Shown here piece by piece: positions 62,912 through 63,029 of a DNA stretch of 64,000 nt. Position numbers and translations under genes: made by a program. Position 1 is the first letter of the stretch; every line of letters begins with the position of its first letter. The DNA comes from Escherichia coli (GTDB taxonomy: Bacteria > Pseudomonadota > Gammaproteobacteria > Enterobacterales > Enterobacteriaceae), in the NCBI RefSeq assembly GCF_003334765.1, contig NZ_QOWT01000003.1, one strand, 5' to 3'. The notes below the pieces were generated by a model. That model was not told the origin of the DNA and did no database searches. It was given only the letters and a program-made list of their open reading frames with translations.

Positions 62912-63029
62912 CGGCTTTATTCCTCTTCTGCGGGAGAGGATCAGGGTGAGGAAAATTTATGCCTCACCCTCACTCTCTTCGTAAGGAGAGAGGTTCACAA
63001 TTCACTGCACGTTTCAGGAACCATCGCTC

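Follow-up and report, generated by a model that had tools for sequence, protein, structure and literature searches.

A decayed inverted pair of BoxC repeats between gcvH and gcvP of Escherichia coli lies at a steady-state RNA 3' end

The BoxC motif was described in the 1990s, and the potential intrastrand triplex (PIT) elements were described by Hoyne and Maher between 2000 and 2002. To our knowledge, no function of BoxC/PIT has become accepted since the 1990s, the proposals being DNA triplex formation and genomic instability. REP/BIME elements, in turn, are known as intercistronic mRNA stabilisers, with malE-malF as the paradigm.

The BoxC/PIT/TM_ECO repeats are G/C-rich intergenic palindromes with about 18 to 23 copies in E. 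coli, and 23 TM_ECO units, including five inverted pairs, are described for strain MG1655 (Holder et al. 2015, PMC4666352). Their canonical form is CCCTCTCCC-nnn-GGGAGAGGG-CCG/TTA-GGGTGAGGG (Table 1 of PMC4666352). Stable stem-loops that lack a U-tract and are found immediately upstream of steady-state RNA 3' ends have been described to protect transcripts from PNPase and RNase II (Dar and Sorek 2018, PMC6061677). For the gcvTHP operon of Dickeya dadantii, an internal transcript end after gcvH with about 71% termination was described to be "in accordance with" E. coli studies; E. coli, too, is reported to have an internal gcvH terminator, and the authors call this E. coli feature an internal TTS (Forquet et al. 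2022, PMC9239193).

The window analysed here is a stretch of 64,000 nucleotides of K-12-like E. coli sequence, in which gcvT (61404-62498), gcvH (62522-62911) and gcvP (from 63030) follow each other on the + strand. The spacer between gcvH and gcvP has the length of 118 nt and the position (62912-63029) that the original prediction gave for it, and it is identical to MG1655 3049042-3049159, the 181 nt around it (62880-63060) being found at 100% identity in K-12 genomes. The RefSeq annotation shows no feature in the spacer, and a promoter scan of its + strand found none. An Rfam 15 scan of 61000-64000 with a permissive E-value returned only sub-threshold chance matches and no cis-regulatory RNA, with the best match being whalefall-1 (19.8 bits, E = 0.075; gathering score 37).

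The spacer is structured far beyond chance and contains three hairpins, hp1, hp2 and hp3 (Table 1). Folding of a 146-nt region gives z = -3.3 relative to dinucleotide-shuffled sequences. Among 12,786 windows slid along the + strand of the whole 64 kb, the 72-nt element ranks first with the lowest minimum free energy (MFE), and the 64 kb contain one copy of the motif GGGTGAGG-N(4-24)-CCTCACCC, with 0 expected. At least two stable hairpins had been proposed for the spacer, and both of those named exist in place as hp2 and hp3; hp1 had been overlooked. The hp2 stem is composed of an A-U pair plus GGGUGAGG/CCUCACCC, its arms having been named earlier as GGGTGAGG/CCTCACCC, and the hp3 stem is CUCUCUUC/GGAGAGAG, named earlier as CTCTCTTC/GGAGAGAG. 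A change of CCTCACCC to GGAGTGGG would disrupt the hp2 stem. The next most stable 72-nt windows on the + strand are located at about 58566-59070, 35896-35975, 28421-28515, 41981 and 12796, with -34 to -37 kcal/mol.

Table 1. Coordinates of the structural, repeat and expression features in and around the gcvH-gcvP spacer (window positions).
Feature	Position	Strand	Description or source
Whole element, degenerate inverted BoxC pair	62921-62994	+	Covariance model R1; lowest MFE
BoxC unit 1, TCCTCTTC-tgcg-GGAGAGGA-tca-GGGTGAGGA	62921-62952	+	nhmmer; published consensus
BoxC unit 2, inverted, more decayed	62962-62993	-	CCTCTCTCC-ttac-GAAGAGAG-tga-GGGTGAGG (minus-strand reading)
Hairpin 1 (hp1)	62921-62940	+	8 bp, loop UGCG, -11.8 kcal/mol
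Hairpin 2 (hp2)	62943-62970	+	9 bp, 10-nt loop, -15.1 kcal/mol; bridges both BoxC units
Hairpin 3 (hp3)	62973-62992	+	8 bp, loop GUAA, -10.6 kcal/mol
Steady-state RNA 3' end	62974 (MG1655 3049097, -)	+	Term-seq, Adams et al. 2021
Conserved gcvP leader and translation initiation region, ATTCACTGCACGTTTCAGGAACCATCGCTC	62996-63029	+	Spacer alignment; orthologues
gcvP Shine-Dalgarno AGGA	63016-63019	+	10 nt before the ATG at 63030

The element at 62921-62994 is a mutationally decayed inverted pair of BoxC/PIT/TM_ECO repeats. The three-block order of BoxC, CCCTCTCCC - GGGAGAGGG - GGGTGAGGG, occurs twice in degenerate form, at 62921-62952 on the + strand and at 62962-62993 on the - strand. A profile built from the 23 published TM_ECO sequences finds its best nhmmer match in the window at 62930-62951 on the + strand (E = 0.012) and its second-best at 62993-62963 on the - strand (E = 6.9); both arm matches are weak singly, yet they are rightly placed and lie on opposite strands, as in an inverted pair. 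The covariance model R1, trained solely on four canonical BoxC pairs from elsewhere in K-12 (hrpB-mrcB, gcvP-ygfF, fepB-entC and alx-sstT), matches the window only at 62921-62994, with 29.9 bits on the + strand (E = 1e-5) and 22.6 bits on the - strand (E = 1e-3), both E-values being roughly calibrated. When R1 was run over 80 gcvH loci of Enterobacterales and relatives (269 kb), all 20 of its 20 matches fell within the gcvH-gcvP spacer, with scores of 67.6 bits in Enterobacter cloacae and 36 bits in a sister Escherichia species, down to partial copies. The membership therefore follows from the HMM and covariance-model matches, with departures in the loops and blocks.

The blocks of the gcvH-gcvP copy read CCTCTTC-tgcg-GGAGAGG-atca-GGGTGAGG ... 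CCTCACCC-tca-CTCTCTT-cgtaa-GGAGAGAG, and the hrpB-mrcB copy has the same architecture (CCCTCTCCC-tgt-GGGAGAGGG-ccg-GGGTGAGGG ... CCCTCACCC-taa-CCCTCTCCC-tcaa-GGGAGAGGG). The exact arm pattern CCTCTCC...GGAGAGG has no match in the window because the gcvH-gcvP copy is too decayed. This copy likewise has neither the type A (TTA) nor the type B (CCG) second loop and no near-perfect blocks; its second loops are ATCA and TCA and each block carries one to three substitutions, which fits the decay of an old copy, and a sister Escherichia species retains TTA/TAA second loops.

BLAST searches of 5,426 E. coli genomes with the E. coli element, in near and distant modes, return its own locus only, and the repeat nature surfaced only with a better-preserved Enterobacter orthologue as the query. 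With this canonical orthologue, the median number of matching places is 18 per E. coli genome, and K-12 has 19. All 15 of the 15 listed best matches are in unannotated (intergenic) DNA, the best one in K-12 being located between hrpB and mrcB. The family is thus dispersed, multi-copy and intergenic, and the gcvH-gcvP copy is intergenic too. It is missing from the published list of 23 TM_ECO units (PMC4666352). For an intrastrand triplex, the block substitutions would remove one to three triads per gcvH-gcvP unit.

Two other identities were considered for the element and rejected. Using the REP consensus GCCGGATG...CCGGCCTAC and the ERIC core CCCAGTCACTTAC, motif classification scores the E. 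coli element as BoxC-like only, and not as REP/BIME or ERIC/IRU. An element dedicated to gcv is ruled out because the hairpins are one instance of a repeat family dispersed over the genome, and other genera carry unrelated repeats or terminators at this site.

A second BoxC pair is found close by, outside the window. The canonical inverted pair TM_ECO 10+11 is located between gcvP and ygfF (MG1655 3045989-3046087; positions 290-388 of locus L083), 81-179 nt downstream of the gcvP stop codon. With this intact pair and the decayed gcvH-gcvP pair, gcvP is therefore flanked by BoxC on both sides.

A strong Term-seq 3' end of the class "orphan" is listed at MG1655 3049097 on the - strand (Adams et al. 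2021, eLife, PMC7815308, supplementary file 1). It maps to 62974, 4 nt after the last base pair of hp2, and this mapping was checked against the printed 61-nt sequence. The end has three occurrences in the file, which spans three growth conditions, with displayed scores of 412,219 and 171,112. In the first list, the gcvP terminator has 36,065 (PMC7815308), and the score of the internal end is about 11-fold that value. Term-seq had been named as a check on the original prediction, and the published data do place a strong 3' end directly behind one of its hairpins. The position of a steady-state end a few nucleotides downstream of a stem-loop as stable as hp2 is that of the protective stem-loops described above. 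The same arrangement is seen at five other BoxC-type copies, which have Term-seq ends 3-11 nt after the BoxC hairpin (MG1655 847200, 3781065, 3959467, 4231270 and 632098). Three of these, at 847200(-), 4231270(-) and 632098(+), are slightly degenerate BoxC-type copies beyond the published 23, and the family is therefore larger than that list.

Further Term-seq ends are found in the same operon. One is located at window position 61348 (MG1655 3050723, -), 56 nt upstream of the gcvT ATG, and is classed as "orphan" with a score of about 80,000; another, at 61469 (MG1655 3050602, -), lies 66 nt into gcvT and is classed as "internal" with scores of about 82,000-106,000. Both are a hint that RNA is terminated prematurely or processed in the leader region of gcvT. 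A weaker end at 63313 (MG1655 3048758, -), 283 nt into gcvP, has a score of about 29,800 and is listed as not Rho-dependent. No gcv entries were found in the Yan 2018 supplements.

In our preferred reading, the BoxC hairpins, and hp2 above all, probably mark and protect the 3' end of the gcvTH transcript, and gcvP mRNA is thereby less abundant. The element is transcribed within the gcvTHP mRNA and folds into three independent hairpins, of which hp2 is the most stable. RNAs cut or terminated in the untranslated spacer, or farther downstream, would then be trimmed by exonucleases in the 3'-to-5' direction as far as hp2, which would stop further trimming, so that stable gcvTH RNA would remain and gcvP mRNA, and probably P protein, would be less abundant than gcvT/H. 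By blocking the trimming at hp2, the element would therefore fill the role that a REP element or a leaky terminator has at the same site elsewhere. We take as demonstrated the structure, the BoxC membership, the place of the 3' end and the distance between the element and the translation initiation region, and infer that hp2 causes or protects the 62974 end, that the H:P ratio is changed by it, and that this effect is selected rather than incidental. One counterpoint to protection is that hp3 (-10.6 kcal/mol) should slow exonucleases too, although hp2 is where the dominant end lies; the end may come from direct cleavage or from non-canonical termination.

The same spacer was compared across 80 gcvH loci, retrieved with one genome per species from Enterobacterales and relatives other than Salmonella and Klebsiella; spacer lengths were obtained for 79 loci, and 55 spacers were read and folded. 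Spacers are between 8 and 445 nt long, with no conservation of their content. Palindromes of the CCCTCTCCC/GGGAGAGGG/GGGTGAGGG type are found in E. coli, a sister Escherichia species, Enterobacter cloacae and asburiae, Pseudocitrobacter, Buttiauxella, Siccibacter and others, with canonical BoxC copies at the orthologous site in Enterobacter, Pseudocitrobacter and Buttiauxella. REP/BIME elements are found in the spacer of Citrobacter, Lelliottia, Trabulsiella, Kosakonia and others, and a full ERIC/IRU in that of C. koseri, Kluyvera and S. marcescens, with short ERIC-type ends in some others. A hairpin plus U-tract, placed from a few to about 13 nt from the gcvH stop, is present in Photorhabdus, Providencia, Dickeya, Pectobacterium, Yersinia nurmii, Serratia silvae, Shimwellia, one Pantoea and an Enterobacteriaceae MAG, such terminator-type spacers being frequent outside the core Enterobacteriaceae. 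Most of the 55 Enterobacterales spacers have a stable hairpin after gcvH although their sequences are unrelated, which suggests that structure, rather than a particular repeat, is retained at this place. The spacers of Erwinia and Rosenbergiella are 8-23 nt long and have no hairpin, and the post-gcvH hairpin is therefore dispensable. In Cedecea, Phytobacter, Enterobacter spp. and Pluralibacter (loci L020, L021, L023, L038 and L047), the spacer retains only one CCCTCTCCC-loop-GGGAGAGGG hairpin, or one half of an element, as would be expected from a deletion between the direct-repeat arms of a BoxC pair.

Folding and covariation were checked across relatives, as proposed earlier. Compensated hp2 variants are seen in Siccibacter (GGGCGGGG/CCCTCGCCC) and in a metagenome-assembled Proteobacteria genome (locus L011; GGATGAGG/CCTCATCC); these cross-genus variants may be different repeat subtypes rather than covariation in situ. 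RNAalifold, applied to eight BoxC-bearing orthologues, favours one long palindrome over three hairpins. The hp2 hairpin is common to the long-palindrome and the three-hairpin folds, and the E. coli copy alone folds as three hairpins.

Within E. coli, the element is present at 80% identity or more in all 5,426 complete genomes and at 95% or more in all but 39. Among seven strains drawn from across the range of identities, differences are confined to the hp2 loop, with five variable positions and the duplication described below, and to one position of the hp3 loop; all three stems and the flanks are invariant. Among the strains read, the 10-nt hp2 loop (62952-62961) is the only hypervariable stretch of the spacer, with its five variable positions and with 1-nt indels. 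E. coli O157:H7 LSU61 (locus L090) carries a 6-nt CCTCAC duplication in hp2, which lengthens the 3' arm and fits slippage in a repeat. With seven strains read, the invariance of the stems could be due to a short time since divergence, combined with hypermutable loops, instead of to selection.

These comparisons bear on a rival reading, according to which the element is the remnant of a neutral or selfish DNA repeat, whose properties concern the DNA level (triplex, cruciform or local instability) and whose RNA 3' end is an unselected by-product. We regard this as possible, though it is not the reading we favour. BoxC/TM_ECO copies adjoin unrelated genes with no functional bias, at loci that are more rearranged between strains (PMC4666352), the gcvH-gcvP copy is itself decayed, and the occupation of the spacer by BoxC, REP/BIME or ERIC in different genera, its reduction to single hairpins elsewhere and the slippage duplication in hp2 of one O157 strain are all as expected for such a remnant. 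It is less easily reconciled with the retention of the element in every one of the E. coli genomes (5,426 of 5,426, at the identities given above), with the confinement of the sampled changes to loops, and with the recurrence of a stable hairpin in most of the 55 spacers despite their unrelated sequences.

A less likely alternative is that hp2 terminates transcription and thereby produces the 62974 end, by a non-canonical intrinsic route or with the help of factors (NusA/NusG, Rho); the element would then be a leaky internal terminator. The 9-bp G/C-rich stem of hp2 is indeed followed by a pyrimidine-rich tail (UCACUCUCUU), genuine hairpin-plus-U-tract terminators occupy this site in Dickeya and several other genera, and the E. 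coli feature is termed an internal TTS by Forquet et al. (PMC9239193). An intrinsic (Rho-independent) terminator proper is rejected: a terminator scan of 62400-63300 found no hairpin followed by a U-run on the + strand, and the tails after hp1, hp2 and hp3 are AUCAGG, CACUCU and GUUCAC. Against termination in the wider sense, the end is only 4 nt from the stem, and no Rho-dependent region near 62974 is listed in supplementary file 2 of Adams et al. 2021 (PMC7815308). Furthermore, according to the summary of the work of Hoyne and Maher given by Holder et al. 2015 (PMC4666352), PIT elements had no terminator activity in reporter tests, no promoter activity and no effect on RNA polymerase, and it would therefore be too simple to describe the 62974 end as termination by the repeat.

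The spacer hairpins had also been proposed to act on translation, with hp3 overlapping the gcvP ribosome-binding site and masking or presenting it, and this we consider very unlikely. The hp3 hairpin does hold a Shine-Dalgarno-like AAGGAG (62983-62988) within AAGGAGAGAGG (62983-62993). However, AAGGAGAGAGG ends 36 nt before the ATG at 63030, placing AAGGAG at least that far upstream, with no start codon at a usable distance, and the overlap that had been claimed is not found. The true gcvP Shine-Dalgarno is the AGGA listed in Table 1, about 25 nt downstream of hp3; its columns are invariant in an alignment of 14 spacers, and CAGGA(A/T) at the same fixed 10-nt spacing to the ATG is found in nearly all of the 55 Enterobacterales orthologues, whichever element is upstream. 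The final 30-35 nt or so of the spacer (ATTCACYGCACGTTTCAGGAACCATCGCYC) are conserved in Enterobacteriaceae independently of the upstream repeat. In partition-function calculations, the unpaired probability is about equal with and without the element, being 0.27 and 0.26 for the Shine-Dalgarno and 0.44 and 0.42 for the ATG, and the main predicted partner of the Shine-Dalgarno is in the gcvP coding region (63051-63055). These predictions largely refute, in silico, a control of gcvP translation by the hairpins. Of the original proposal of an RNA-processing or translational-control element that sets the stoichiometry of H and P protein, the processing and stoichiometry half has some support in the Term-seq end at 62974, and the translational half is not supported, with the Shine-Dalgarno outside the hairpins and its predicted accessibility unchanged.

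The gcvP leader (62996-63029) is almost invariant across Enterobacteriaceae, which exceeds the needs of the Shine-Dalgarno alone. A small hairpin around the Shine-Dalgarno, UUC-CUG...CAG-GAA, is present in the MFE structure; we make no claim for it because a T-to-C change common in many genera (CTG to CCG) breaks the pairing without compensation. Finally, a 24-codon upstream reading frame from an ATG at 62959 to a TGA at 63033, which has a GAGG 7 nt upstream of its ATG in this window and whose stop overlaps the gcvP start (ATGA) in a way that could couple both, is rejected as extremely improbable because its ATG is not conserved, being found only in the K-12-type sequence, missing in six of six other E. 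coli strains, where ACG or ACA stands in its place and several strains have a 1-nt indel in the loop, missing also in the sister Escherichia species, and buried together with its Shine-Dalgarno inside hp2.

Earlier publications already cover the repeat family, the protection of RNA by hairpins and the internal transcript end after gcvH, and our results do not overturn the current understanding. Judged from sources other than the BoxC lists of the 1990s and the Hoyne 2000 PIT list, two points appear to be unrecorded, namely, that the gcvH-gcvP hairpins are a decayed BoxC pair and that the "orphan" Term-seq end is located at the central hairpin of this pair. An "orphan" 3' end inside a textbook operon is thereby accounted for, and one degenerate copy is added to the BoxC/PIT family beyond the published 23. 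The gcvH-gcvP copy and five further BoxC copies coincide with RNA 3' ends, so that an RNA-level role of BoxC becomes testable. For the glycine cleavage system, the comparison suggests that the lower level of gcvP than of gcvTH mRNA is due to a structural cassette, exchanged among terminator, BoxC, REP and ERIC in the course of enterobacterial evolution. A broader view, which we put forward only tentatively, is that BoxC/PIT repeats are mainly RNA-level, exonuclease-blocking hairpins defining 3' ends, that at gcvH-gcvP such a repeat replaced an ancestral leaky intrinsic terminator, and that BoxC, REP and ERIC are interchangeable cassettes keeping gcvP mRNA below gcvTH.

Compared with the described BoxC/PIT/TM_ECO repeats, the gcvH-gcvP element shares the tripartite order of a pyrimidine block, a purine block and the GGGTGAGG block, the 3- to 4-nt loops and the intergenic location, and it has the inverted-pair layout of the five published K-12 pairs. 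It differs by about one to three substitutions per 8- to 9-nt block, by ATCA/TCA loops in place of CCG/TTA, and by a centre of 10 nt compared with about 16-29 nt, and any triplex formed by this copy would be weakened by the substitutions. With the REP/BIME stabilisers and the stem-loops of Dar and Sorek, it has in common that a transcribed spacer holds a stable stem-loop, that no U-tract follows, and that a steady-state 3' end lies immediately downstream, and REP/BIME itself occupies this spacer in Citrobacter, Lelliottia, Trabulsiella, Kosakonia and others. The E. coli element, however, belongs to another repeat family and has no REP consensus, and by analogy it would be a putative stabiliser of the gcvTH mRNA. 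The leaky terminator of the Dickeya dadantii gcvTHP operon (PMC9239193) is similar in its place just after gcvH and in its outcome, a gcvTH transcript and a read-through gcvTHP transcript; in Dickeya, Pectobacterium, Yersinia nurmii, Photorhabdus and Providencia the structure is a hairpin plus U-tract, whereas the E. coli element is a BoxC pair without a U-tract.
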